From a virus, in the UHGV virus genome UHGV-0143875: a stretch of DNA of 16,260 bases. One strand, given 5' to 3'. The notes below the pieces were generated by a model. It was not told where the DNA came from. It did no database searches and worked only from the letters and a program-made list of their open reading frames with translations. The translations under genes were made by a program, and so were the position numbers. Each line of letters opens with the position of its first letter. The stretch's first letter is position 1. Shown here piece by piece: positions 2,849 through 14,967 of the stretch.

Positions 2849-3022
2849 CTATTTGAGTAACGATTCGTCGCTGTCTCGCCATACGTCCTCCTTTTCCTGA
2901 GGTAGTGGTAACACCCCTGTTGGTGTTCTTTCACACCGGAGACACCATCGATTCCAGTAAGGTTGCCCGGGTCGAAAGCGATCGTCTTCCTTTCGCTCTC
3001 CACATCGATAACAGTGCTTCAT
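2849..3022 (-). CDS. 57-aa CxxC...CxxC zinc-ribbon protein (NinD/ORF57-like by size and position)
   Basis: Start moved to Met7 of ORF 2849..3040 ([34 protein letters not shown]...), giving an ATGA start/stop overlap with the upstream methyltransferase gene. Identity with lambda NinD is not verified. Confidence 0.5.
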
Positions 3023-3609
3023 GCGATCACCATTTTGCATGGTTTAATCGCCATGCCGGGAGCCAGTTCAAAATCGGAGTCGCACTGATTGCCCCACATA
3101 TCCCACCCGGTCACTTTGTCGCGGCTAAATAACTCACAGCGCGGCACGTCGCCAAGCAACTTAGCTAACATGTCTCTTACGATCGGTGGTTTTGCACTGT
3201 GCTCCATTCTCGGTGCGGTAAAGTGCTGGCATATTGAAGCGTCCATTCTCTCAGGCAACCGCCCTCGAACAGCAAACAAGCAATCCTCGCTATTTGCCCG
3301 GGTCATATGCCCCATTCCGATCGCACTGTTGCCTTTGTGCTTATTGGTTTTGTGCCAAGTAAAGCCTTTCATAGTCATCAACCTGAATCCCCACGCCTCA
3401 ATTACCTTTAGCGCTTCGGCTGGCTGTGTCGGCACCCACCACATCGCTAACAAGCAAGATTCTGGATCCGCTAAATCCCATACTGGCAGTCGGCAAATGT
3501 CCTGAACATTCATAACATCGTATTTATGTCCAGCACCGCGATTGCCATCGTTGGCTTTGTCGCGATATTGCCAAGGCGGATCTGCGTAAATAAGTCGGTA
3601 TTTGTTCAT
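3019..3609 (-). CDS. DNA N6-adenine methyltransferase, MT-A70/DPPW family (orphan, no restriction partner seen)
   Basis: 196 aa starting [15 protein letters not shown]...; the DPPW motif near the N-terminus is the catalytic signature of phage Dam-like adenine methyltransferases. Occupies the slot between ninB and ninD (the lambda ninC position). ATGA overlap with ninB. Confidence 0.8.
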
Positions 3610-4119: not shown

Positions 4120-4410
4120 TCATCTTTTAACTCCATATACCGCCAATACCCGTTTCATCGCGGCACTCTGGCGACACTCCTTAAAAATTAGGTTCGTGCT
4201 CATCTTTCCTTCCCGTTCTTCCTTGGTAGCAAACCGGTAATACACCGTTCGCCAGACCTTACCTTCGATAACCAGAAGACCTGCCCGTGCCATTTTAGCC
4301 GCGGCCTGATTTATGCTGGTTACTGTTGCGCCTGTTAGCGCGGCAACGTCCGGCGCACAGAAGCTATTATGCGTCCCCAGGTAATGAATAATTGCCTCTT
4401 TGCCCGTCAT
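4120..4410 (-). CDS. ren: Ren (Rex-exclusion escape protein)
   Basis: 96 aa MTGKEAIIHYLGTHNSFCAPDVAALTGATVTSINQAAAKMARAG...; matches lambda Ren by recall; positioned after P. Confidence 0.9.
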   Translation of the reverse strand: MTGKEAIIHYLGTHNSFCAPDVAALTGATVTSINQAAAKMARAGLLVIEGKVWRTVYYRFATKEEREGKMSTNLIFKECRQSAAMKRVLAVYGVKR

Positions 4411-5108
4411 ACACTTGCTCCTTTCAGTCCGAACTTAGCTTTGAGTTCTGCGATCTTCGCCAGAGCCTGTGCACGATTTAGAGGTCTACCGCCCATGACA
4501 GGAAGTTGTTTTACTGGTTCAGGGATCGCCTCACCACGGTTAATTCTCGCAGTCATATGGACAAGCTCATCTGCGGCCTTACGGCGTAATTCCGCATCAG
4601 TAAGCGCATTGGCCCGCATGTTCTGATACAGGTTGGTAACCAGCCAGTAGTGCGCGTTTGATTTCCACGGATAAGACTCCGCATCCGGATACAGGCCTCG
4701 CTTCCGGCAATACTCGTAAACCATATCAACCAGCTCGCTGACGTTTGGCAGTCCGGCGATAACGGATGCTTCTTCCCGGCACCATGCAACAAACTGCCCG
4801 GGTGATGGCAGAAATGGCCGATTCTGCCGACGGGCTACGCGCATTCCTGCGTTAACCTGTTCCATTGTGGTGATCCCGTTTTCCCGGAAAGCCAGAACCC
4901 ACTGGCGGCGGATTTCGTTCAGTTCGTTCTGGTCACGGTTAGCCAGACTCGCCGGGAAAGTTGCCAGTAACTGGCTGAACACACCGTTGATGATCTGCGC
5001 TACCTGCTGTACCTGCGGCTTTTCGTCGTACTGTTCCGGCATGTTGTTGGCGATCCTACGCATCTGCTCACGGTCAAAGTTAACCATCTGTGCGGCGATG
5101 TTTTTCAT
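4407..5108 (-). CDS. P: Replication protein P (DnaB helicase loader)
   Basis: 233 aa MKNIAAQMVNFDREQMRRIANNMPEQYDEKPQVQQVAQIINGVF...; lambda P by recall; overlaps O and ren at both ends. Confidence 0.95.
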   Translation of the reverse strand: MKNIAAQMVNFDREQMRRIANNMPEQYDEKPQVQQVAQIINGVFSQLLATFPASLANRDQNELNEIRRQWVLAFRENGITTMEQVNAGMRVARRQNRPFLPSPGQFVAWCREEASVIAGLPNVSELVDMVYEYCRKRGLYPDAESYPWKSNAHYWLVTNLYQNMRANALTDAELRRKAADELVHMTARINRGEAIPEPVKQLPVMGGRPLNRAQALAKIAELKAKFGLKGASV

Positions 5109-6004
5109 AGATCCACCCCGTAAATCCAGTCTGTGTTTGTCAGGTCGAGTTTTGGTTTGCTGGCTGTCACGACTGCCTGTTGCTTGTTACGGTTGATTTC
5201 GAGTTGGGTCCACTTGTCGCGGAGTTTGGCCGGACTTAGCACGTTACCGGACCAGAAGTTGTCCTGGCATGCCCAGCGGAACAGTACACACATGTCGCGG
5301 TGGTTACGTCCGTCACGTTCACGCATCAGGCGGATATCGTTAGCCCACCCTGCAAAATTCGGTTTTCTGGCTGATGGCGCGATGGTCTTCACCATGTCAA
5401 ACATCCACTCTGCGGCGGTCAGGTCTTCTGCTGTCCCCCACTTGCTGCCGCTCTGAATTGCAGCATCCGGTTTCACCACAGAAAGGTCGTTTTCTGGCTG
5501 GTCAGAGGATTCGCCAGAATTCTCTGACGAATAATCTTTTCTTTTTTCTTTTGTAATAGTGTCTTTTGTGTCCCCCTGTTTTGAGGGATAGCAATCCCCC
5601 AATTTGAGGGATGTTTTATCCCTCGTTTTAGGGGATTTTCCCTCGTTTTGAGGGATGCACCATTCTGAGATGTTTTTGTTTGGTCCAAACATGCCGCCTT
5701 GCTGCTTGATAATATTCATTCTGACGAGTTCTAACTTGGCTTCATTGCACCGTTTGACAGGTAACTTTGTAATCTCGCTAAGTTGAGAATCGGTGATTCT
5801 GTCCATTGGTTTATTCCACCCATAGGTTTTACGCAGAATGGCAAGCAGCACTTTAAACTGTCGCTTGGTCAGATCTGCGCCTGAATAAGCCTCAAGCAGC
5901 ATATTTGATAGTCTGGCGTAACCATCATCGAGATCTGCCACATTACGCTCCTGTCCGGCAAAGTTACCTCTGCCGAAGTTGAGTATTTTTGCTGTATTTG
6001 TCAT
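5105..6004 (-). CDS. O: Replication initiator protein O
   Basis: 299 aa MTNTAKILNFGRGNFAGQERNVADLDDGYARLSNMLLEAYSGADLTKRQF...; lambda O by recall; contains the origin iterons within its coding sequence. Confidence 0.95.
   Translation of the reverse strand: MTNTAKILNFGRGNFAGQERNVADLDDGYARLSNMLLEAYSGADLTKRQFKVLLAILRKTYGWNKPMDRITDSQLSEITKLPVKRCNEAKLELVRMNIIKQQGGMFGPNKNISEWCIPQNEGKSPKTRDKTSLKLGDCYPSKQGDTKDTITKEKRKDYSSENSGESSDQPENDLSVVKPDAAIQSGSKWGTAEDLTAAEWMFDMVKTIAPSARKPNFAGWANDIRLMRERDGRNHRDMCVLFRWACQDNFWSGNVLSPAKLRDKWTQLEINRNKQQAVVTASKPKLDLTNTDWIYGVDL
5537..5656. other. Origin of replication (ori-lambda type): four iterons plus adjacent A+T-rich region, inside O
   Basis: Four ~18-19-bp iterons of form TCCCTC-N6-GAGGGA at about 5571-5589, 5594-5612, 5618-5636 and 5639-5656, flanked at 5537-5570 by the A+T-rich tract ttttcttttttcttttgtaatagtgtcttttgtg. 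Confidence 0.9.
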
Positions 6005-6014
6005 AATGACTCCT

Positions 6015-6091
6015 GTTGATAGATCCAGTAATGACCTCAGAATTCCATCTGGATTTGTTCAGAACGCTCGGTTGCCGCCGGGCGTTTTTTA
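6015..6091 (+). ncRNA. oop: oop antisense RNA (about 77 nt, antisense to the cII 3' end) with its intrinsic terminator
   Basis: Plus strand GTTGATAGATCCAGTAATGACCTCAGAATTCCATCTGGATTTGTTCAGAACGCTCGGTTGCCGCCGGGCGTTTTTTATT: 8-bp stem ACGCUCGG/CCGGGCGU followed by a U-run, overlapping the cII stop at the cII-O junction. Matches the lambda oop region by recall. Confidence 0.7.
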
Positions 6092-6330
6092 TTGGTGAGA
6101 ATCGAAGCAACTTGTCGTGCCAATCGAGCCATGTCGTCGTCAACGACACCCCATTCAAGAACAGCAAGCAGCATTGAGAACTTTGGAATCCAGTCCCTCT
6201 TCCACCTGCTGATCTGCGACTTATCAACGCCCACAGCTTCCGCTGTCTTCTCAGTTCCAAGCATTGCGATTTTGTTAAGCAACGCACTCTCGATTCGTAG
6301 AGCCTCATTGCGTTTGTTTGCACGAACCAT
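6037..6330 (-). CDS. cII: Transcriptional activator cII
   Basis: From ATG at 6328-6330 (RBS AGGAAATACTTACAT upstream): MVRANKRNEALRIESALLNKIAMLGTEKTAEAVGVDKSQISRWKRDWIPKF..., 97 aa; lambda cII by recall. The ORF-track N-terminal extension is not coding. Confidence 0.95.
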   Translation of the reverse strand: MVRANKRNEALRIESALLNKIAMLGTEKTAEAVGVDKSQISRWKRDWIPKFSMLLAVLEWGVVDDDMARLARQVASILTNKKRPAATERSEQIQMEF

Positions 6331-6364
6331 ATGTAAGTATTTCCTTAGATAACAATTGATTGAA

Positions 6365-7998: not shown

Positions 7999-8108
7999 AG
8001 CATTCAAAGCAGAAGGCTTTGAGTAGCGCGAAATGCAGCTGCAAGACAGCAACCGTGGAGATAAGCATCACGGCGCGTTACTCAAAGCTAACTGACAGGA
8101 GAATCCAG

Positions 8109-8435
8109 ATGGATGCACAAACATGCCGCCGCGAACGTCGCGCAGAGAAACAGGCTCAATGGAAAACAGCAAACCCCCTGTTGGTTGGGGTAAGCGCAAA
8201 ACCAGTTAACCGCCCTATTCTCTCGCTGAATCGCAAACCGAAATCACGAGTAGAAAGCGCACTGAATCCGATAGACCTTACAGTGCTGGCTGAATACCAC
8301 GAACAGATTGAAAGCAACCTGCAGCGTATTGAGCGCAAGAATCAGCGCACATGGTACAGCAAGCCACGCAGTGAAATGGGTGTGACTTGTGTTGGTCGCC
8401 AGAAAATGAAATTAGGCAGCAAACCACTTATTTGA
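8109..8435 (+). CDS. N: Antitermination protein N
   Basis: From ATG at 8109: MDAQTCRRERRAEKQAQWKTANPLLVGVSAKPVNRPILSLNRKPKSRVESALNPIDLTVLAEYHEQIESNLQRIERKNQRTWYSKP...; arginine-rich motif at the N-terminus; lambda N by recall. The ORF-track upstream extension (8019-8108) is leader. Confidence 0.9.
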   Translation: MDAQTCRRERRAEKQAQWKTANPLLVGVSAKPVNRPILSLNRKPKSRVESALNPIDLTVLAEYHEQIESNLQRIERKNQRTWYSKPRSEMGVTCVGRQKMKLGSKPLI

Positions 8436-8446
8436 GAGGAATTAAT

Positions 8447-8983
8447 ATGTCATCAATCCGCTTAACTACGAGAATGAAAGAGAAAATCGCTCGTAACGCT
8501 TTAATTAAATCTGGGGTTTTCACTGAGCTTGAAGAAGTAACAAAGTTAAAGAACAAGCTTGCACTTGACGCCAGAGTTGTTGCGTTTGGCGGTAAAAAGA
8601 AAACTGAGGAAGTGGATCAGTTATCATCCAAGTTAATGGCTATAAGCGAAGAACTTGAAAAGCTGGGATGTTCATTTTACTCATGCGATGCCCGTTCAAC
8701 TTCAATTTATCTGACTGTATCTGGCAGAAGGGTTGGCTGGTATTCATATGGGAAAGACGGCAACGGCGAAGATATATTGCTCCCTACTCCGACCAAAGAT
8801 AAATGCATGTTTAGCGCAGAACACGAAATAACAAAAAGGTTTGATGAAATCTGCGCATTGCAACAAAAACTTGAAGCCAAGAAAAAGGATATCGAATCAA
8901 ATGTATGGGCTGCTTTGAACTCAGTCACAACAGTTAAGCGACTTATTGAAGTTTGGCCTGAAAGCAAAGAGTTGCTACCATAA
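8447..8983 (+). CDS. Hypothetical protein, 178 aa, in the N-proximal accessory slot (lambda ral/sieB position)
   Basis: ATG at 8447 preceded by GAGAGGA RBS; MSSIRLTTRMKEKIARNALIKSGVFTELEEVTKLKNKLALDARVVAFGGKKKTEEVDQ...; charged, Lys-rich, no obvious transmembrane segment; lower GC than flanks by eye; no resemblance to Ral or SieB as recalled. Confidence 0.6.
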   Translation: MSSIRLTTRMKEKIARNALIKSGVFTELEEVTKLKNKLALDARVVAFGGKKKTEEVDQLSSKLMAISEELEKLGCSFYSCDARSTSIYLTVSGRRVGWYSYGKDGNGEDILLPTPTKDKCMFSAEHEITKRFDEICALQQKLEAKKKDIESNVWAALNSVTTVKRLIEVWPESKELLP

Positions 8984-9465: not shown

Positions 9466-9569
9466 GTTTTACAGATAACTGGTCAGACGAAGAATTCATT
9501 CGTCAGATAAACAAAATGCTCAATCAGCACAAAGAACAGGAGAAAGATGATGATTCTGACTCTGAATGA
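9462..9569 (+). CDS. Possible small acidic protein (35 aa), ATGA-coupled to cIII
   Basis: MSFTDNWSDEEFIRQINKMLNQHKEQEKDDDSDSE; start overlaps the cIII stop; too short for the ORF track; coding status uncertain. Confidence 0.3.
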   Translation: MSFTDNWSDEEFIRQINKMLNQHKEQEKDDDSDSE

Positions 9570-9858
9570 TAAGCGTGAAATATCGCAAATTATCGCAACT
9601 TTTACTGATGAAGATTACGAACGAATCAACAGTGAAGTTGATCGCCTCTGCAAACGTTGCGACCCAATAAGCGAAATGCTTCGCTCATATAAACCAGATG
9701 AACACACTAAAGATGCTATCGACTGGCTGGAAGATGATGACTGTGACTATCAGGAAAAAGCCGCTGAATGGTTCTGGGATGCAATAACAGAAAGAGTTAA
9801 GGCTGAATATGCCTTCGCAATATTCAAACGCAGACAAATTTATGGAGAAGCAGCATGA
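9547..9858 (+). CDS. Hypothetical acidic protein, 103 aa, immediately upstream of and coupled to the RecT gene
   Basis: RBS AGGAG 5 nt before ATG; MMILTLNDKREISQIIATFTDEDYERINSEVDRLCKRCDPISEMLRSYKPDEH...; Asp/Glu-rich; stop overlaps the RecT start (ATGA). In the position lambda uses for kil/gam. Confidence 0.6.
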   Translation: MMILTLNDKREISQIIATFTDEDYERINSEVDRLCKRCDPISEMLRSYKPDEHTKDAIDWLEDDDCDYQEKAAEWFWDAITERVKAEYAFAIFKRRQIYGEAA

Positions 9859-10757
9859 GCAATATCGTTGAATTCGTTAAACATCAGGAGCAGTTATTCT
9901 GCGGGGCATTGACTGAACAGACGGTGACATGGGCTAAGGAAAGCCAGTTTGCAATTCAGTATTTCCAGAAAAATGATTACCTGGCTAAAACGGCACTGGC
10001 AAATCCAACCAGCGCACAGAACGCCATCATCAATGTTGCGGCGATCGGCATCACCTTAAACCCGGCTAGCAAACTGGCTTATCTAGTTCCGCGCGACGGC
10101 ATGGTTTGCCTTGATATAAGTTACATGGGATTACTTCACCTTGCACAGTCGACAGGATCAATTAAGTGGGGACAATGCAAACTGGTGTACTCAAACGACA
10201 CCTATGAATCGAATGGCCTTGATTCAGCACCCACTCACAAATACAACGCATTTGGTGAGCGAGGCTCTATTGTTGGTGGTTATTGCACGGTTAAAACAGC
10301 AGATGGTGACTACCTGACTGAAGAAATGAGTCTGACAGAAATTAAAGCCGTGGAAGCAACGAGCAAGGCAAAGAATGGACCGTGGATGACATTCTGGGAA
10401 GAGATGGCGCGTAAAACCATAGTTAAACGCGCCAGCAAATACTGGCCTAAAGCCCAGCGACTGGATAATGCCATTCACCTGCTTAACGAAGATGAAAGTA
10501 TGCATCAGGAACCAGTTATGCCGCATAAATCAGAGGAAGATATCCGCGAAGATGAACGGAAACGCCAGCAGGAAATAACGGATAAAGCACAACTTCTTTG
10601 TGATGAAATGGCTCAGGCTGAAAACATGGATGATTTGAAGAGATATTTTGCAGAAGCATATCGCCTGACATCTGGAATGAAATTGCAGCAGAACGTACAA
10701 GCCATTTACATAGAATGCAAAGCGAAACTGGAGGTTGCCAGTGAGCAAACTGTATGA
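9855..10757 (+). CDS. recT: RecT-family single-strand annealing recombinase
   Basis: 300 aa; contains the ...NGPWMTFWEEMARKTIVKRASKYWP... block characteristic of the RecT family (compare Rac RecT GPWVTHWEEMAKKT by recall); occupies the lambda bet position. Confidence 0.8.
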   Translation: MSNIVEFVKHQEQLFCGALTEQTVTWAKESQFAIQYFQKNDYLAKTALANPTSAQNAIINVAAIGITLNPASKLAYLVPRDGMVCLDISYMGLLHLAQSTGSIKWGQCKLVYSNDTYESNGLDSAPTHKYNAFGERGSIVGGYCTVKTADGDYLTEEMSLTEIKAVEATSKAKNGPWMTFWEEMARKTIVKRASKYWPKAQRLDNAIHLLNEDESMHQEPVMPHKSEEDIREDERKRQQEITDKAQLLCDEMAQAENMDDLKRYFAEAYRLTSGMKLQQNVQAIYIECKAKLEVASEQTV

Positions 10758-11223
10758 AATAGCCAATGAATACGCAAAGTTGATGGATTCGGATTTAGAG
10801 CCAGAGATGATTGCTGACACAATAGAAGGCATGGAAGGAGAATTTACCGATAAAATAGAGCAACTTCTTGCCATTATTAAAAATGAATCTGGTTATGCTG
10901 AACGCCTCAAGGACGAGGCAAAGTCACTGAATGAACGAGCAGCAGTAATTCAAAATAAGATTGATAGCATTATGGCATATATAGCGTCATCGCTTGAAAT
11001 GGTTGGCAAGAAAAAGATTCGAGCAGGTATTCACCAGGTAACAATCCGCAAACCGTCAGAAACTGTAGAAATCATCGACTCAAGCGCCCTTCCTCAAGAA
11101 TACGTTGAGTTTGAAACGACAATTAAAGCCGACAAGTTGGCAATAAAACACCAACTAAAAGCAGGAATAAATATCCCCGGCGCTCAACTCAAAGTTGGGA
11201 AACCTTCACTTCTTATCAAATAA
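10741..11223 (+). CDS. Hypothetical protein (~160 aa) downstream partner of RecT, probable GTG start
   Basis: GGAGG RBS 7 nt upstream of GTG at 10741; overlaps the RecT 3' end; predicted helical and charged: SKLYEIANEYAKLMDSDLEPEMIADTIEGMEGEFTDKIEQLLAIIKNESGYAERLKDEAKSLNERAAV.... Function unknown. Confidence 0.55.
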   Translation: MSKLYEIANEYAKLMDSDLEPEMIADTIEGMEGEFTDKIEQLLAIIKNESGYAERLKDEAKSLNERAAVIQNKIDSIMAYIASSLEMVGKKKIRAGIHQVTIRKPSETVEIIDSSALPQEYVEFETTIKADKLAIKHQLKAGINIPGAQLKVGKPSLLIK

Positions 11224-11234
11224 CGGTATCGCCT

Positions 11235-11549
11235 ATGAAAAAGACTCCATGGGAGAAATGGGAAGTCAATTTCTTGCGCGAAGTAGTGGCGACAATGCCA
11301 GTTGAAGTTATCGCTGAAAAACTGGAAAGGACTGAAAAAGCAGTAATGGCGAAAGCAACAAGGATTGGCGCTGACATTGTTAGCCGACTTCGTGGAAGAC
11401 GATGGACAAGAGCCGAAGTATCACTTTTCGGTAAGTTCTCCGCAGAAGAAATAGCAATTGCAACCTGCCGCTTAATTTATTCGGTAAGAGCTATGCGATA
11501 CAAGCTAAAAAAACTCGATGAAAAAAGAGCAGGCATACAAATAAATTAA
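11235..11549 (+). CDS. Hypothetical small basic protein, 104 aa, with two W/E/F-containing repeats (possible DNA-binding)
   Basis: MKKTPWEKWEVNFLREVVATMPVEVIAEKLERTEKAV...RRWTRAEVSLFGKFSAEEIAIATCR...; internal repeat noted by eye; fold unverified. Confidence 0.5.
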   Translation: MKKTPWEKWEVNFLREVVATMPVEVIAEKLERTEKAVMAKATRIGADIVSRLRGRRWTRAEVSLFGKFSAEEIAIATCRLIYSVRAMRYKLKKLDEKRAGIQIN

Positions 11550-11565
11550 CATGGAGTAATTAACA

Positions 11566-11847
11566 ATGAAGCTAAACATCGACCTCGGTAAATACGTTAT
11601 TACTGGAACAAAACACGACCTGATTCTTAATGAAAGAGGAATTATCAAAGAAGGTGAGAATGCAGGGAAAGAAACACTAAGCCGTATCGGTTATTACAGC
11701 AAGTTTGAGCATCTGGTCAAAGAGTTATGCAACCGTGAAATCCTGTTATCTCAGGCGCAGACGCTACAGGATATTCAGCAGCATATCGAAACTTTAGGTA
11801 TGTCACTTAGCATGGCTATTGACCAGTTCGTGGAGAGTAAATCATGA
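11566..11847 (+). CDS. Hypothetical protein, 93 aa
   Basis: ORF track; same strand, AT-rich, tightly spaced after the previous gene. Confidence 0.5.
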
Positions 11848-11978
11848 GAGGACTTGCATACAATCCCGGCATTCTTCCAGCAGAAATGATTATTCGCCAA
11901 CGCGTAAAGCCAATGCCATCGAGAGAGGAATTGCTTAAGAGAAATTCTTTTCCATCAGTGAATCAAACAAATATCTGA
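11844..11978 (+). CDS. Possible small protein (44 aa), ATGA-coupled to the preceding gene
   Basis: [44 protein letters not shown]; start overlaps the upstream stop; below the ORF-track size cutoff. Confidence 0.3.
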
Positions 11979-12006
11979 ATACGATGTGGCGCAAAGGAGG
12001 CAACCA

Positions 12007-12567
12007 GTGAGTGTAACGGTTGAAAAGATTGATGTGTTGTCATTCGTTATAACCGGTGCAGAGAGACTAGATCCGGTTCGAGTGATGATTGAAAACTACG
12101 AACCTGGAAAGGGAAGAATCACCATCACCTGCTACGGAAAAGCGTGGACTGCGGCTTGGTTTGCTATGGGCGGTGATGATGTGCAGACGTTCATTAAGCG
12201 AGTCAGCAACGATTATCTAATCGACAATTTCGACCCTCAACTGCTAAGCACGGTCGACGATGACAACGATGCAAATCTGCTTTTCGTGAAGTCAGAAATC
12301 ATAAAGTTACGAAGAGAGAGAGAAATAGACGTCGTACTGGCTCGCGAAATGTGGGACGAGGCGGAAAACGCCGATGACGTAAAAGAAAGCTGCTGCTGTT
12401 TCGGCGTCGGTAACAAACTACTGAATCTCTTTGGTGATGATCCGTGGTATGCCAACTGGCCAACGATACCAAACCCGAAATACCAGTATCTGGAACGCGT
12501 ACTTAATGCAGTGAGAGACGGTCTTAAGCAAATAGATGCAGGAGAGCAAAGCGATGAAAAACCGTAA
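12007..12567 (+). CDS. Hypothetical protein (~186 aa), probable GTG start
   Basis: AAGGAGG RBS at 11994-12000, GTG at 12007; ...VTVEKIDVLSFVITGAERLDPVRVMIENYEPGKGRITITCYGKAWTAAWFAMGGDD...; acidic central region; first gene of a tightly coupled five-gene block. Confidence 0.55.
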   Translation: MSVTVEKIDVLSFVITGAERLDPVRVMIENYEPGKGRITITCYGKAWTAAWFAMGGDDVQTFIKRVSNDYLIDNFDPQLLSTVDDDNDANLLFVKSEIIKLRREREIDVVLAREMWDEAENADDVKESCCCFGVGNKLLNLFGDDPWYANWPTIPNPKYQYLERVLNAVRDGLKQIDAGEQSDEKP

Positions 12568-12730
12568 GGCAAAACGACTTTTTTTACAGCGACCTGTGCG
12601 TGTGGTGGAGCTGGTTATTAGCAACCATAAGATAGCGGTACTCCATCCATTTGGTCAGGTGGCTTTTGCCGCAAAGCGTAAGCCTACTGCGTCACAGAAC
12701 AGGCGGAAGAAAGGGTACGCTGTAAGATGA
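12554..12730 (+). CDS. Small basic protein (58 aa), paralog 1 of a tandem pair
   Basis: ATG at 12554 (internal Met of ORF 12536..12730): MKNRKAKRLFLQRPVRVVELVISNHKIAVLHPFGQVAFAAKRKPTASQNRRKKGYAVR; Lys/Arg-rich. Confidence 0.5.
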   Translation: MKNRKAKRLFLQRPVRVVELVISNHKIAVLHPFGQVAFAAKRKPTASQNRRKKGYAVR

Positions 12731-12918
12731 AAAACCGTAAAGCAAAGATGCTTATTTCCCGTGTATACAGACGTTGCTATCCCAGCCAATGGTTGAGGGT
12801 TAGCAATCGCCGTGTGGTGTTGTTTTCATTTTCTGGAATTGCCAGAGAGGGAGTCAAAGATAAGCGTAGCGCGGCGCAAAACCGCTGGAAAAACCACTTG
12901 TGCACTAAAGGAGCGTGA
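12727..12918 (+). CDS. Small basic protein (63 aa), paralog 2 of a tandem pair
   Basis: MKNRKAKMLISRVYRRCYPSQWLRVSNRRVVLFSFSGIAREGVKDKRSAAQNRWKNHLCTKGA; ATGA-coupled to paralog 1; shares the MKNRKAK N-terminus and an S/A-QNR-R/W-K C-terminal block. Confidence 0.5.
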   Translation: MKNRKAKMLISRVYRRCYPSQWLRVSNRRVVLFSFSGIAREGVKDKRSAAQNRWKNHLCTKGA

Positions 12919-12919
12919 T

Positions 12920-13435
12920 ATGGCGTTAACACACCGCGAACTCTGTCAGATTGCGTACAAGTTCCTTAAGCGCAACGGGTTCAAGGTTTGTTTTCATGAC
13001 CGCTTTATAGCTGTAACCAGTACCGGAGAACAGCCAGATGCTATGGGATTCAGAAATTCAGCATCATGCCTGATAGAGGCGAAGTGTTCTCGTGCTGACT
13101 TGTTGGCAGATAGAAAAAAGCGTTTCCGTAAAAATCCGTCTCTTGGAATGGGCGACTGGCGATTCTTTATTAGTGAGCCGGGAATTATTTCAATTGAGGA
13201 TTTACCTCCCGGCTGGGGATTACTTCACGTTGTTAACGGAAGAGTACGGAAAGTACATGGATGGCCCAAGGGGAATTGCTGTTGGGGTAACCCTGAAGAT
13301 AAACCTTTTATTGGGAATAAGCAGGTTGAATGCGATTACATGTTATCTGCATTAAGGCGCATGGAGTTGAGAGGGCACCTTAATGAAATATATGACGGTG
13401 TAATTGTTAATAAGAAAGAAGGAAACGCGGCATGA
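12920..13435 (+). CDS. Hypothetical protein, 171 aa, with a PD-(D/E)xK-like motif (possible nuclease fold)
   Basis: ATG at 12920 after AAGGAG RBS: MALTHRELCQIAYKFLKRNGFKVCFHDRFIAVTSTGEQPDAMGFRNSASCLIEAKCSRADLL...; the D-x(n)-E-A-K arrangement resembles restriction-endonuclease-fold catalytic motifs. Inference only. Confidence 0.5.
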   Translation: MALTHRELCQIAYKFLKRNGFKVCFHDRFIAVTSTGEQPDAMGFRNSASCLIEAKCSRADLLADRKKRFRKNPSLGMGDWRFFISEPGIISIEDLPPGWGLLHVVNGRVRKVHGWPKGNCCWGNPEDKPFIGNKQVECDYMLSALRRMELRGHLNEIYDGVIVNKKEGNAA

Positions 13436-14364
13436 TCACTATTACCAAAGAGTTCACCAAAGAGCAGTTGATTGAGCAGGCTAAGAAGAATATTGAGGTT
13501 CTTCGCGTTGCGGTGGAAAGAGTCCCAGGCGCTTATGATGCGGCGGTTATTCATCTCAAGCTGGCTGAAATTACGCTGGCATCGCTGGAAGCAGAGCCTG
13601 TTCTGTATCAGTCCTGCACACGCCCCACCTGGAATAGCGGAGTTCCGTGGACGGAATGGAAAGAACGTAGTCGTGAGGGCTACGAAGACGATTTGCGCTT
13701 TACAGACACGCCTGACCATGCCGGTTGGATAAACAAATGTCGAAAACTATATACCACTCCGCCAGCACCGATAGCGTTAGAGGCCATTGAAAACGCAATT
13801 GAATATATCCGCAGTATCGCTTTTCACATCGATGAAGACGATTACCACGGCAAGCATATTGCGTATTTCATGCGACAAGCACTGGTCTGGCTGGAAGGGC
13901 ATTCATGCAGCAACGACAGACAGGGTAAAGCCGAGAATCAACCAGTACGCGGCAACCAGACTGCCGAATCCAATCGCGGTAATGAGTGGACCGGCAATCC
14001 TGATATTGATAACGCCATCATCATGCTCGATCGCATAGATACGCTGGAAAGTTGCGATGATGACCGTATTGAGGCGGTTAAGGCTGTTTTGCGTAGACTG
14101 GCTGGCAACTATCCGGTAACTCCGGATGGTTGGATAAGCTGTAGTGAGCGAATGCCAGAAATGGGAGAGCGACAATGCTATGTGTTAGCAGCTGACTTTA
14201 AAAACAACTACCCACCAAACATCCCCAACACTCAGGTCGGCGTATATGGCGACTGGTTTAATGATGGCAATCCCACTTGGGATGACGGTGATGGCGAAGA
14301 CCTGTATCTCAAAGAGGTAACCCACTGGATGCCGCTACCGGAACCGCCACAGGAGGTGAAATGA
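13432..14364 (+). CDS. Hypothetical phage protein, 310 aa, with a C-terminal region resembling the DUF551 prophage domain
   Basis: ATGA-coupled to the upstream gene; C-terminus ...QCYVLAADFKNNYPPNIPNTQVGVYGDWFNDGNPTWDDGDGEDLYLKEVTHWMPLPEPPQEVK resembles DUF551-type tails by recall; N-terminal two thirds unassigned. Confidence 0.55.
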   Translation: MITITKEFTKEQLIEQAKKNIEVLRVAVERVPGAYDAAVIHLKLAEITLASLEAEPVLYQSCTRPTWNSGVPWTEWKERSREGYEDDLRFTDTPDHAGWINKCRKLYTTPPAPIALEAIENAIEYIRSIAFHIDEDDYHGKHIAYFMRQALVWLEGHSCSNDRQGKAENQPVRGNQTAESNRGNEWTGNPDIDNAIIMLDRIDTLESCDDDRIEAVKAVLRRLAGNYPVTPDGWISCSERMPEMGERQCYVLAADFKNNYPPNIPNTQVGVYGDWFNDGNPTWDDGDGEDLYLKEVTHWMPLPEPPQEVK

Positions 14365-14425
14365 TGCTTGGCCTGAAGTATTTTATGTAATTGGTATTGC
14401 TATATTTTTATCTGGGGATAAACGA

Positions 14426-14668
14426 ATGTTCTCTCTGATTCAACGTGGTCAGATATACACCGATAGCGCTGGCTATCCAGTAAAAATCATTCGTAGTACT
14501 GATCACTCAGTGTTCTTCAAGAGGATGGATGGCTATCCTGGAAGGGTGTGCATCAGAAAATTCAATAATTTATTCGAACACATTGATCACAGAGAATATC
14601 ACCAGATCCTGGCTGAAACAGAACAGGAGAACCATCTGAAAAAATTACGTGCCATGCAAAGGAGATAA
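14426..14668 (+). CDS. Hypothetical protein, 80 aa
   Basis: ORF track; MFSLIQRGQIYTDSAGYPVKIIRSTDHSVFFKRMDGYPGRVCIRKFNNLFEHIDHREYHQILAETEQENHLKKLRAMQRR; same strand as the pL operon. Confidence 0.45.
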   Translation: MFSLIQRGQIYTDSAGYPVKIIRSTDHSVFFKRMDGYPGRVCIRKFNNLFEHIDHREYHQILAETEQENHLKKLRAMQRR

Positions 14669-14748
14669 ACCGGTAAAGGTGTTCGCGATAAAGGTGAATA
14701 TCGGCAATGAATAACAATCCTCGAACTCGCGGGGATTTCTTTTATCTG

Positions 14749-14773
14749 AACTCGCTACGGCGAGTTTTGTTTT
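14749..14773 (+). terminator. Candidate intrinsic terminator or attenuator
   Basis: AACTCGC-TACG-GCGAGTT hairpin followed by TTGTTTT; located between the 80-aa gene and the 55-aa ORF. Confidence 0.35.
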
Positions 14774-14786
14774 ATGGAGATGATAA

Positions 14787-14954
14787 ATGCACTTCCGAGT
14801 CACAGGTGAATGGAATGGAGAACCATTCAACAGAGTTATCGAAGCAGAGAACATCAACGACTGCTATGACCACTGGATGATATGGGCGCAGATAGCACAT
14901 GCAGACGTAACCAATATTTGTATTGAAGAACTGAAAGAACACCAAGCCGCCTGA
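14787..14954 (+). CDS. Small protein (55 aa) immediately upstream of xis (lambda orf55-like by position)
   Basis: MHFRVTGEWNGEPFNRVIEAENINDCYDHWMIWAQIAHADVTNICIEELKEHQAA; below the ORF-track cutoff; translated by hand. Confidence 0.45.
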   Translation: MHFRVTGEWNGEPFNRVIEAENINDCYDHWMIWAQIAHADVTNICIEELKEHQAA

Positions 14955-14967
14955 TGGCGGTTTTTTC
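14946..14967 (+). terminator. Hairpin plus T-run between the 55-aa ORF and xis
   Basis: GCCGCC-TGAT-GGCGGT followed by TTTTTTC; overlaps the stop of the 55-aa ORF. Confidence 0.5.

Follow-up and report, generated by a model that had tools for sequence, protein, structure and literature searches.

Do five genes that are packed end to end in the early-left arm of a lambdoid prophage act together as one module, or have they been brought together gene by gene? The question is raised by the window analysed here, a stretch of 16,260 nucleotides (UHGV virus genome UHGV-0143875), in which the five genes lie on the + strand. The first, g1 (12007-12567), starts with GTG, stops with TAA and encodes 186 aa. 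It is followed by g2 (12554-12730, 58 aa) and g3 (12727-12918, 63 aa), which encode copies A and B of a small basic protein (phrog_1380), by g4 (12920-13435), which encodes a PD-(D/E)xK nuclease-fold protein of 171 aa, and by g5 (13432-14364, 310 aa). The g2 ATG is located inside g1 with a 14-nt overlap, the g2/g3 and g4/g5 junctions are ATGA overlaps, and 1 nt separates the g3 stop from the g4 ATG. These reading frames and junctions, reported in the initial annotation, were confirmed from the ORF list and the sequence. The GTG at 12007 is favoured over the GTG at 11986 as g1 start because an SD sequence, AAGGAGG, can be read at 11994..12000 on the same strand, and gene callers also assigned 186 aa to the g1 product on identical contigs. 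The five ORFs are more than chance, and variable columns at the three codon positions amount to 43/29/116 in g1, 23/11/125 in g4, 16/12/24 in g3 and 1/1/6 in g2.

The block indeed lies where it had been placed, between a recombination module, here RecT/Gp157, and xis/int in the pL operon. It belongs to the lambdoid early-left region and is the same-strand counterpart of the lambda ea/exo-xis region. Gene order in the window is canonical for lambdoid phages, with Q, NinG, NinB, P, O and cII on one strand and cI, N, RecT, Gp157, the block, xis and int on the other. The tight junctions had been taken as an argument for co-translation as one unit, an argument that loses its force once the operon is viewed as a whole. 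A junction spacing of at most 28 nt extends across 12 consecutive pL-operon genes (9547-14364), and upstream of the block the junctions comprise two overlaps (9858/9855 and 11847/11844) as well as short gaps (11223 to 11235, 11549 to 11566 and 11978 to 12007). Packing is identical over the whole operon from 9547 onwards, so that the tight junctions are a trait of the entire operon and not peculiar to the five genes. Promoter-like sites were not found on the + strand within the block, a single weak terminator-like hairpin is present on its coding strand (14061-14080), and an Rfam scan of the window returned two tRNAs only, neither of them in g2/g3. As it has no internal promoter, the block is probably silent in a lysogen, which argues weakly against a prophage-borne defence system.

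Such a system had been considered at the outset. According to this explanation, the g4 nuclease, the basic g2/g3 proteins, the acidic g1 protein and the DUF551 protein g5 would be co-translated as one defence or anti-defence module. It draws on the tightly coupled start and stop codons, on the likeness that a nuclease accompanied by small basic proteins may bear to some defence and anti-defence loci, and on a five-gene order that recurs unchanged in several E. coli assemblies, following either of two different recombination modules. The junction style is common to the whole operon, however, and no credible support for a defence composition came from PADLOC-DB v2, in which four of the proteins had no match and g1 alone matched, over 57 residues, a model of a type II restriction enzyme (15 bits, E 0.0027). 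The restriction-enzyme reading is unsupported by the fold search with the g1 model. Neighbourhood data also weigh against a single module. At least 80% of the block in one place was found in none of 50,697 phage records and in none of 5,426 complete E. coli genomes. Homologues of g4 were located in 52 species genomes ranging from Enterobacterales to Bacteroidota, where g2/g3 relatives occurred within 5 kb in no genome and g1 in one; no conserved neighbour common to these g4 homologues was found across the 52 genomes, the neighbours being assorted mobile-element genes such as methylases, Ead/Ea22, NinG, RusA and TraC. Among the matches listed, 80 viral loci seeded with g3 had g4 as the next gene in 22 (28%) and g1 in none, and 80 loci seeded with g1 had g2/g3 in one and g4 in three; both sets of loci are redundant, which makes the frequencies rough. 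The acidic g1 is thus almost never accompanied by g2/g3 or g4.

Within the genomes compared, the full five-gene set is restricted to one E. coli prophage lineage, in which the arrangement is identical (L217-L221). The exact g5 protein occurs in 214 blocks of the assembly collection, and 24 contigs were read. Inside this single E. coli lineage the five genes stay together, which counts against their independence. Distribution differs gene by gene and is not that of a conserved multi-gene module. The initial proposal of one co-inherited unit is not borne out, as linkage is not conserved and the genes are largely scattered, and a defence or anti-defence module, already largely refuted by the neighbourhood data, is very unlikely.

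Mosaic breakpoints coincide with gene boundaries, at 11990 and at about 14711. The first one, directly 5' of g1, became visible by comparison with a second E. coli prophage (L220) that carries an ERF/Abc2 recombination module in place of RecT and is 99.7% identical from 11990 through the end of int. What is shared with this prophage is the whole arm from g1 to int, and therefore nothing specific to the five genes, which again speaks against a one-module explanation. The variable region is bordered on its right by a + strand segment that is ~98% identical to phage lambda (14711..16260; orf-55, xis and int), and the host flank ybhC shows 100% identity to E. coli. A Salmonella host, which the flanking genes had suggested at first, was rejected because of this identity. 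In P1-like phage-plasmids g2, g3, g4 and the N-terminal part of g5 are found together at ~94% identity, so some sub-blocks persist across very different replicons.

The explanation that we consider likely is that the block consists of four independently acquired accessory cassettes, namely g1, the g2-g3 tandem pair, g4 and g5, in the N-antiterminated pL operon of a lambda-like E. coli prophage at the lambda attB beside ybhC. Once the phage infects or the prophage is induced, the genes would ride as passengers on the long pL transcript, and each would be translated from its own SD with the stop/start coupling usual across the operon. The tight junctions would then result from compaction of the genome and from recombination at gene boundaries rather than from a shared function. 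Overall this amounts to an ordinary lambdoid mosaic accessory region, in which the interchangeable cargo behind g3 is a modest new point.

None of the five products had at first been recognisable. That statement now needs some qualification, as g1 falls within PF26211, the g4 protein is MmcB-like and g5 combines an EaA-like region with DUF551. PHROGs labels all five products 'unknown function'. An NCBIfam scan of the five proteins found no match, and DUF551 was the sole match in a Pfam scan with a set that did not contain the PF26211 model.

The g1 product, predicted to be acidic and indeed with a pI of 4.4, is a conserved acidic phage protein of Pfam family PF26211 (Phage_phiTE_072; phrog_3451). 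Membership is given by a precomputed match on the identical 186-aa product from the source contigs, and the same precomputed match exists for all g1 homologues among the matches listed (120). The structural model shows an N-terminal four-stranded beta unit and a helical bundle, and C42, C129 and C130 are invariant. No match to a known fold was obtained in the fold search with this model, and a literature search for PF26211 returned nothing specific to such phage proteins.

The two small proteins that follow are basic, as had been noted (pI 12.0 for g2 and 11.7 for g3), and their proposed paralogy is supported by 41% identity (E 5e-6). They form a narrow, fast-evolving family of small basic proteins, detected in Escherichia, Salmonella and Citrobacter only (45 clusters at 50% identity in a set of 1.84 billion proteins). 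Conserved motifs in g3 are MKNRKAK, (W)LxxSNR and AAQNRWKNH, and S26, N27, Q51, N52 and R53 are invariant in the protein sequence. The arginine/lysine-rich products probably bind nucleic acid. At the nucleotide level, the 5' ends of the two genes constitute a direct repeat on the + strand (copy 1, 12553..12584; copy 2, 12726-12757; 81% identity, spacing 173), at which ATGAAAAACCGTAAAGCAAAG is 93-99% conserved over 60 unique small basic units. The 5' 21 nt and the 3' ~30-50 nt of the small basic gene are 80-99% conserved, and its middle mostly shows ~55-75% identity with indels. The SD of the downstream gene (AAAGGAG) sits within the last codons of g3, and at least 14 gene families occupy the position after the small basic unit, mostly via the identical 1-nt junction. 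The commonest successor of g3 encodes a Cys-rich protein of 69 aa. Most likely, the small basic gene provides, at its 3' end, the RBS for whichever gene comes next.

Taken to its extreme, this pattern would mean that g2 and g3 are non-functional as proteins and serve as junction linkers, with a frame kept open only to hand ribosomes on and with ends that act as short homologies. The conserved ends around a variable middle, the weak codon-position bias of g3 (16/12/24), the 14 alternative downstream families mostly at the same joint and the SD in the last g3 codons all agree with this idea, as does the RecT recombinase carried by the phage. The use of short homologies by RecT and Red-beta is established knowledge. 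The ORF is nevertheless open, at 58-63 aa, in 59 of the 60 unique variants; the invariant residues include the mid-gene LxxSNR motif away from the junctions, each copy has its own SD and some third-position excess is seen. An RNA element in g2/g3 was also rejected, as RNAalifold gave a weak structure (-10.2 kcal/mol, covariation term -0.8) with almost no covariation and the search for a conserved RNA structure remained negative. Linkers devoid of protein function are accordingly improbable.

A related and more far-reaching possibility, to which we give little credence, is that of a portable 'leader cassette', in which the conserved ends of g2/g3-type genes would be homology arms for a recombinase-mediated swap of the downstream gene, the 3' end would supply the next RBS and the arginine-rich product might act together with the cargo. 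The product might, for example, bind nucleic acid and thereby target or restrain the g4 nuclease. If true, this would represent a device for homology-based exchange of gene cassettes in lambdoid and P1-like accessory regions. A literature search found no published description of a recurring small basic ORF before interchangeable genes.

The third component, g4, had been credited with a PD-(D/E)xK-like motif. This motif, D40...E53-x-K55, whose three residues are the catalytic candidates, proved invariant in 32 close and in 39 distant homologues, and E37 is likewise invariant. In the g4 model (pLDDT 85.7) the motif is found at the start of strand 41-45 and at the end of strand 48-54, within the alpha-beta-beta-beta-alpha-beta core of the PD-(D/E)xK superfamily. 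A search of the PDB with the g4 family profile yielded a single match, 3dnx (E 1.8e-4), and SPO1766/3dnx is the closest relative by structure and profile similarity; PDB searches with single g1, g4 and g5 sequences gave nothing significant. 3dnx is the listed structure of PF06319/DUF1052, PD-(D/E)XK group 92 (PMC3424549), to which MmcB is related as a PD-(D/E)xK endonuclease that protects Caulobacter against mitomycin C and cisplatin (PMC9578287). Matches to PF06319 were obtained for 6 of 39 g4 family members, and the gathering score of 22 bits was reached by one of them (L053, 22.2 bits); the g4 protein of the window had no Pfam match at E<=1 and so stays below this threshold. A literature search for MmcB or DUF1052 in phages returned nothing specific to such phage proteins. 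Most likely, g4 encodes a PD-(D/E)xK superfamily DNA endonuclease that depends on Mg2+ and whose nearest relatives are DUF1052/MmcB-like, and the enzyme probably acts on damaged or branched DNA in phage DNA metabolism. The MmcB-like assignment of this previously unassigned protein is modestly new.

The adjacency of g3 and g4 in 28% of the listed loci and the fusion-like profile of PHROG 9263 could reflect a functional pair. In such a pair g3, with or without g2, would serve the MmcB-like nuclease as an adaptor, as an inhibitor or as a subunit that targets it to DNA. In lambdoid as well as P1-like contexts g4 follows the small basic gene directly, with the identical 1-nt junction, in the 22 of 80 listed loci, and the PHROG 9263 profile consists of a g3-like segment (1-61) followed by g4 (62-230). 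As 'Rosetta stone' evidence the longer fused database entries were discarded, since those inspected are mixed-neighbour fusions or upstream-start artefacts. Moreover, g4 homologues stand without a g2/g3 relative in all 52 species genomes, also at loci of 90% identity (L004 and L005). The g4 family is distributed much more widely than the small basic family, being present in 641 phage records, which include virulent Ackermannviridae as well as Vibrio phages. With 13 other gene families also following the small basic gene, a dedicated g3-g4 pair appears unlikely.

Alternatively, g4 could belong to the recombination module, either as the missing nuclease partner of RecT or as a Holliday-junction resolvase. 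No exonuclease gene can be recognised beside RecT (9855-10757), and the exonucleases that act as partners, lambda Exo and RecE among them, are PD-(D/E)xK enzymes. In addition, 14 of 39 g4 family members show weak HMM matches to Hjc (PF01870; best E 7.9e-4). On the other hand, g4 is 2.2 kb and five genes away from RecT, NinG is already encoded on the opposite arm, and close homologues of RecT, Bet or Exo were found by tblastn, which covers close relatives only, within 5 kb of g4 homologues in 0 of 52 genomes. A recombination partner is hence quite doubtful, and an independently acquired nuclease cassette is preferred.

The g5 protein is most likely modular, of EaA type, and carries a portable DUF551 tail. 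An EaA-like region (phrog_60; 13432..14127, + strand) makes up its N-terminal two thirds and shares 70-81% identity with the 'EaA protein' of P1-like phage-plasmids. The DUF551-like tail that had been suspected is a genuine Pfam domain (PF04448; residues 233-307, 14128..14364, + strand), covered over the full model length with 74.1 bits at a gathering cutoff of 22. In Stx phages a different protein ends in a tail that is 98.9% identical to this one, and because the N-terminal part and the tail match different proteins, g5 is itself a chimera. A DUF551 tail occurs also in the Ea22_V2 variant of Stx phages (PMC10834534). An orthologue of Ea22 was considered and rejected, as g5 has no PF13935 (Ead_Ea22) match at E<=1 and BLASTP against lambda Ea22 gave an E of 22. 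By position, g5 may be regarded as analogous to the lambda ea genes. These genes modulate the lysis-lysogeny decision.

For annotation, these results mean that a functional module should not be read from overlapping start and stop codons in a phage early operon, and that the five genes are best annotated and studied separately. A widespread 'hypothetical' phage family, which also occurs in many bacterial mobile elements, can now be placed beside the DUF1052/MmcB-like nucleases, which leads to a biochemical hypothesis, the metal-dependent cleavage of damaged or branched DNA. The small basic ORF with its interchangeable cargo may help to explain the shuffling of accessory genes among lambdoid prophages, Stx phages and P1-like plasmids. 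The current picture of lambdoid mosaicism is left intact.

Among known systems, the exo-xis/ea region of lambda and the ea genes of P22 resemble the block most closely in setting. They likewise lie in the pL operon between recombination genes and xis/int, and they are small, packed, mosaic and mostly uncharacterised; relatives of g5 are annotated as 'EaA protein'. Unlike lambda, the window has RecT/Gp157 instead of Exo/Bet/Gam, lambda's own genes ea8.5, ea22, orf61, orf63 and orf60a are all absent, and lambda Ea22 has no similarity to g5. The g4 family and the DUF1052/MmcB-like nucleases (PF06319, 3dnx SPO1766 and Caulobacter MmcB) are both single-domain proteins of ~150-170 aa that share the motif hD...hhE-x-K-x-SR-x-DF-x-AD. 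The g4 protein of the window differs from DUF1052 members in falling short of the Pfam threshold, and its family has further invariants (G76, G78 and R81 of GMGDWRF, and the WGLL motif) and a C-terminal helical extension. The carriers of this family are phages and other mobile elements and not alphaproteobacterial chromosomes, and the role of MmcB in crosslink tolerance and the SOS response is known for Caulobacter only (PMC9578287), whereas g4 sits in a phage pL operon. Archaeal Hjc-type resolvases have the PD-(D/E)xK core in common with g4 and are linked to its family by the weak HMM matches. Finally, the exchange at gene boundaries that characterises the modular evolution of lambdoid phages is mirrored in the block by the same kind of breakpoints, by separate distributions and by conserved short flanks, but a small basic ORF that precedes at least 14 different genes is a more regular arrangement than the generic case.

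The block between the recombination module and xis contains five same-strand genes joined by the junctions that the initial annotation had described. The ORF list and the raw sequence agree on their limits, all on the plus strand: g1 from the GTG at 12007 to 12567 (186 aa), g2 at 12554-12730 (58 aa), g3 at 12727-12918 (63 aa), g4 at 12920-13435 (171 aa) and g5 at 13432-14364 (310 aa). The start of g1 at 12007 is favoured over an upstream GTG at 11986 by an AAGGAGG at 11994-12000. Consecutive genes are connected, in order, by a 14-nt overlap, ATGA, TGA-T-ATG and ATGA. The g1 product is acidic (pI 4.4); those of g2 and g3 are strongly basic (pI 12.0 and 11.7) and, as had been supposed, paralogous (41% identity); the 5' ends of both genes are marked by a 32-nt direct repeat. 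Among close homologues, variable columns per codon position number 43/29/116 in g1 and 23/11/125 in g4, with a weaker bias in g3 (16/12/24) and g2 (1/1/6). This weaker bias might suggest that g2 and g3 are non-coding junction sequences, a reading of low probability: in 59 of 60 unique variants the small basic ORF is uninterrupted, at 58-63 aa, and a search for an RNA explanation of its conservation revealed neither a conserved RNA structure nor an Rfam family. All five genes are real.

The window has the canonical make-up of a lambdoid prophage segment. The minus strand carries Q, a metallophosphatase, NinG, NinF, an MT-A70 methylase, NinB, P, O and cII, and the plus strand carries cI, N, an Nmad5-domain protein, RecT, Sipho_Gp157, DUF5405 and DUF2737 before the block and DUF4222, xis and int after it; from this layout the plus strand corresponds to the leftward pL operon. 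Between ~14711 and the window end, identity to phage lambda is ~98% (orf-55, xis, int), and in identical contigs the prophage lies at lambda attB beside a ybhC that is 100% identical to that of E. coli. The block occupies the place of the lambda ea / exo-xis genes, as proposed. No sigma-70-like promoter was found on the coding strand inside it, and the only terminator-like hairpin there is weak (14061-14080). The tight junctions had been read as the sign of a five-gene unit. However, twelve consecutive genes (9547-14364) are joined by stop/start overlaps or gaps of at most 28 nt, so that tight coupling is a property of the operon and not of these five genes.

Several other features of the segment deserve mention. 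The Nmad5 ('nucleotide modification associated domain 5') protein (198 aa, 8387-8983, plus strand, E 2.9e-58) directly follows the N antiterminator gene (8019-8435) and is an unusual occupant of that position. RecT (9855-10757), within 9547-11223 on the plus strand, is flanked by a 103-aa uncharacterised product and Sipho_Gp157. On the minus strand, tRNA-Thr(TGT) and tRNA-Asn(GTT) (539-694) are found downstream of Q (antiterminator gene, 758-1276), and the MT-A70-family methyltransferase (3019-3609), a possible orphan methylase, belongs to the nin region, with NinB on one side and NinF on the other. The lambda-like part contains terminator-like hairpins (14716-14767 and 14944-14963), and sharp mosaic joints are seen at ~14711 (lambda-like to the right) and ~11990 (to the right of which the window resembles L220, an E. 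coli prophage).

Comparative evidence speaks against the five genes as one unit, as first suggested, and a five-gene module is of low probability. The complete order is seen again in one lineage of E. coli prophages (loci L217-L221). One member, L220, has an ERF/Abc2 recombination module in place of RecT and 99.7% identity from 11990 through int, so the shared piece is the whole right arm and not the block. Elsewhere the genes are largely found separately and with no conserved linkage, the pattern named at the outset as evidence against a unit. A megablast search of 50,697 phage records and 5,426 complete E. coli genomes with 11900-14450 revealed no place where 80% or more of the block is covered; coverage peaks at 59%, at ~94% identity, on P1-like phage-plasmids, which hold g2, a g3-like copy, g4 and the N-terminal part of g5. 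When bacterial species were scanned with one genome each, 52 loci with a g4 homologue emerged, ranging from Enterobacterales, by way of Shewanella, Marinobacter and Stenotrophomonas, to Pedobacter, Flavobacterium and a Bacillota MAG. No locus of the 52 carries a relative of g2/g3 within 5 kb; a g1 relative lies at 3 kb in one, and some DUF551 gene is nearby in four. Clustering of four genes on each side revealed no conserved neighbour of g4 beyond a loosely assorted group of Ea22/DUF551-type genes in seven Enterobacteriaceae; the neighbours are mixed mobile-element genes (DNA methylases, Ead_Ea22, NinG, RusA, RdgC, TraC/TraG). Among the 80 g3-seeded viral contigs listed, g4 came next in 22, a second small basic copy occurred in ~31 and g1 in none; among the 80 g1-seeded contigs listed, g2/g3 occurred in one and g4 in three. 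In phage EC.W1-9, two unrelated genes separate g1 from g4. Salinicola acroporae (L032) is the only non-enterobacterial species genome with relatives of g1 (distant, 29% identity) and g4 within 3 kb (2039-2575 and 5001-5486), which may be a coincidence.

The g4 family is conserved and widespread. Nine residues (E37, D40, E53, K55, D60, D64, K67, R70 and R81) are invariant even across a distant set of 39 members, and the AlphaFold model built with 32 homologues (pLDDT 85.7) has an alpha-beta-beta-beta-alpha-beta nuclease core. The sole significant match of the family profile to PDB sequences is 3dnx (E 1.8e-4), with which it has the motif IE-x-K-x-SR-x-DF-x-AD in common. This structure was given for Pfam PF06319 (DUF1052) in a census of PD-(D/E)XK proteins (PMC3424549), and the named DUF1052 member, Caulobacter MmcB, is an SOS-regulated endonuclease conferring protection from mitomycin C and cisplatin (PMC9578287). 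For the window's own g4 protein Pfam gives no match, and 6 of 39 relatives touch PF06319, one of them at threshold; g4, whose PD-(D/E)xK-like motif had already been noticed, is therefore best described as a predicted PD-(D/E)xK nuclease nearest the MmcB-like family and not as a threshold member. No recognisable exonuclease partner (Exo, RecE, YqaJ type) adjoins RecT and 14 of 39 relatives have weaker Hjc matches, which could hint that g4 is a RecT partner or a resolvase; this is considered unlikely. The g4 family is found in 641 phage records, those of virulent Ackermannviridae and Vibrio siphophages among them, always annotated as 'hypothetical'; this favours a function in phage DNA metabolism over prophage-borne defence. 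In the Stx1a phage LC744193.1 (L003), an insertion of ~1.26 kb (5096-6361), probably an insertion sequence, splits the homologue at residue 33. In the P1-like plasmid NZ_CP074794.1 (L002, 4391-4903), RefSeq has a frameshifted pseudogene plus partial CDS where tblastn finds an unbroken 171-aa ORF 100% identical to g4; the pseudogene call is probably an annotation artefact from fused reference proteins.

The g2/g3 family has a narrow range (Escherichia, Salmonella, Citrobacter); in a set of 1.84 billion proteins it accounts for only 45 clusters (50% identity). Almost every member stands alone as a protein of 55-90 aa. Variable, indel-prone stretches lie between the conserved motifs MKNRKAK, LxxSNR and AAQNRWKNH. 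Nucleotide conservation is 80-99% in the first 21 nt and in the 3' AGCGCGGCGCAAAACCGCTGGAAAAACCAC core, and the AAAGGAG of the next gene sits in the last codons. That next gene is exchangeable: at the 80 loci listed it belongs to 14 different families, mostly starting 1 nt past the stop, among them a 69-aa cysteine-rich protein (36 loci), g4 (22) and an HNH-like protein. The frequency of g4 in this position could argue for g3 and g4 as a pair, an interpretation rendered improbable by the variety of these genes and by the 52 species loci. A further reading, of low probability, is that the small basic ORF serves as a leader or homology cassette through which cargo genes are exchanged. The cysteine-rich protein (MAIAASYTMHLYCDCRQCTNGKY..., for example at 4194-4403 of locus L056), the commonest follower, is possibly zinc-binding.

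The g1 protein is a member of Pfam PF26211 (Phage_phiTE_072) and phrog_3451, strongly conserved and with three invariant cysteines; many homologues lie on contigs of ~100-110 kb, possibly phage-plasmids. The g5 protein is chimeric. Over its first 223 residues it shares 70-81% identity with the 'EaA protein' of P1-like elements, and its tail, a full-length DUF551 domain as expected (74 bits, cutoff 22), shares 98.9% identity with a different Stx-phage protein. The DUF551 tail is portable: Ea22_V2 of Stx phages, YfdS and MazZ-type pyrophosphohydrolases carry it too (PMC10834534). Kinship of g5 with Ea22 was rejected, as it has no similarity to lambda Ea22 and no Ead_Ea22 domain.

The analysis establishes the gene structure, operon context and mosaic distribution of the block, the nuclease fold and motif of g4 and the exchangeable genes behind g3. 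Expression of the block genes probably depends on pL alone and follows infection or induction. The g4 nuclease would cleave DNA in a metal-dependent manner, with damaged or branched DNA as its probable substrates, and the g2/g3 products may be nucleic-acid-binding peptides whose gene would also supply the translation start region for the next cassette; g5 and g1 are predicted modulators. What is usefully added is a position for g4 next to the DUF1052/MmcB-like nucleases, a family name for g1 (PF26211) and the recurrence of the small basic ORF ahead of many alternative genes. Overall, the block is a commonplace instance of the mosaic accessory region that lambdoid phages carry in early-left position.
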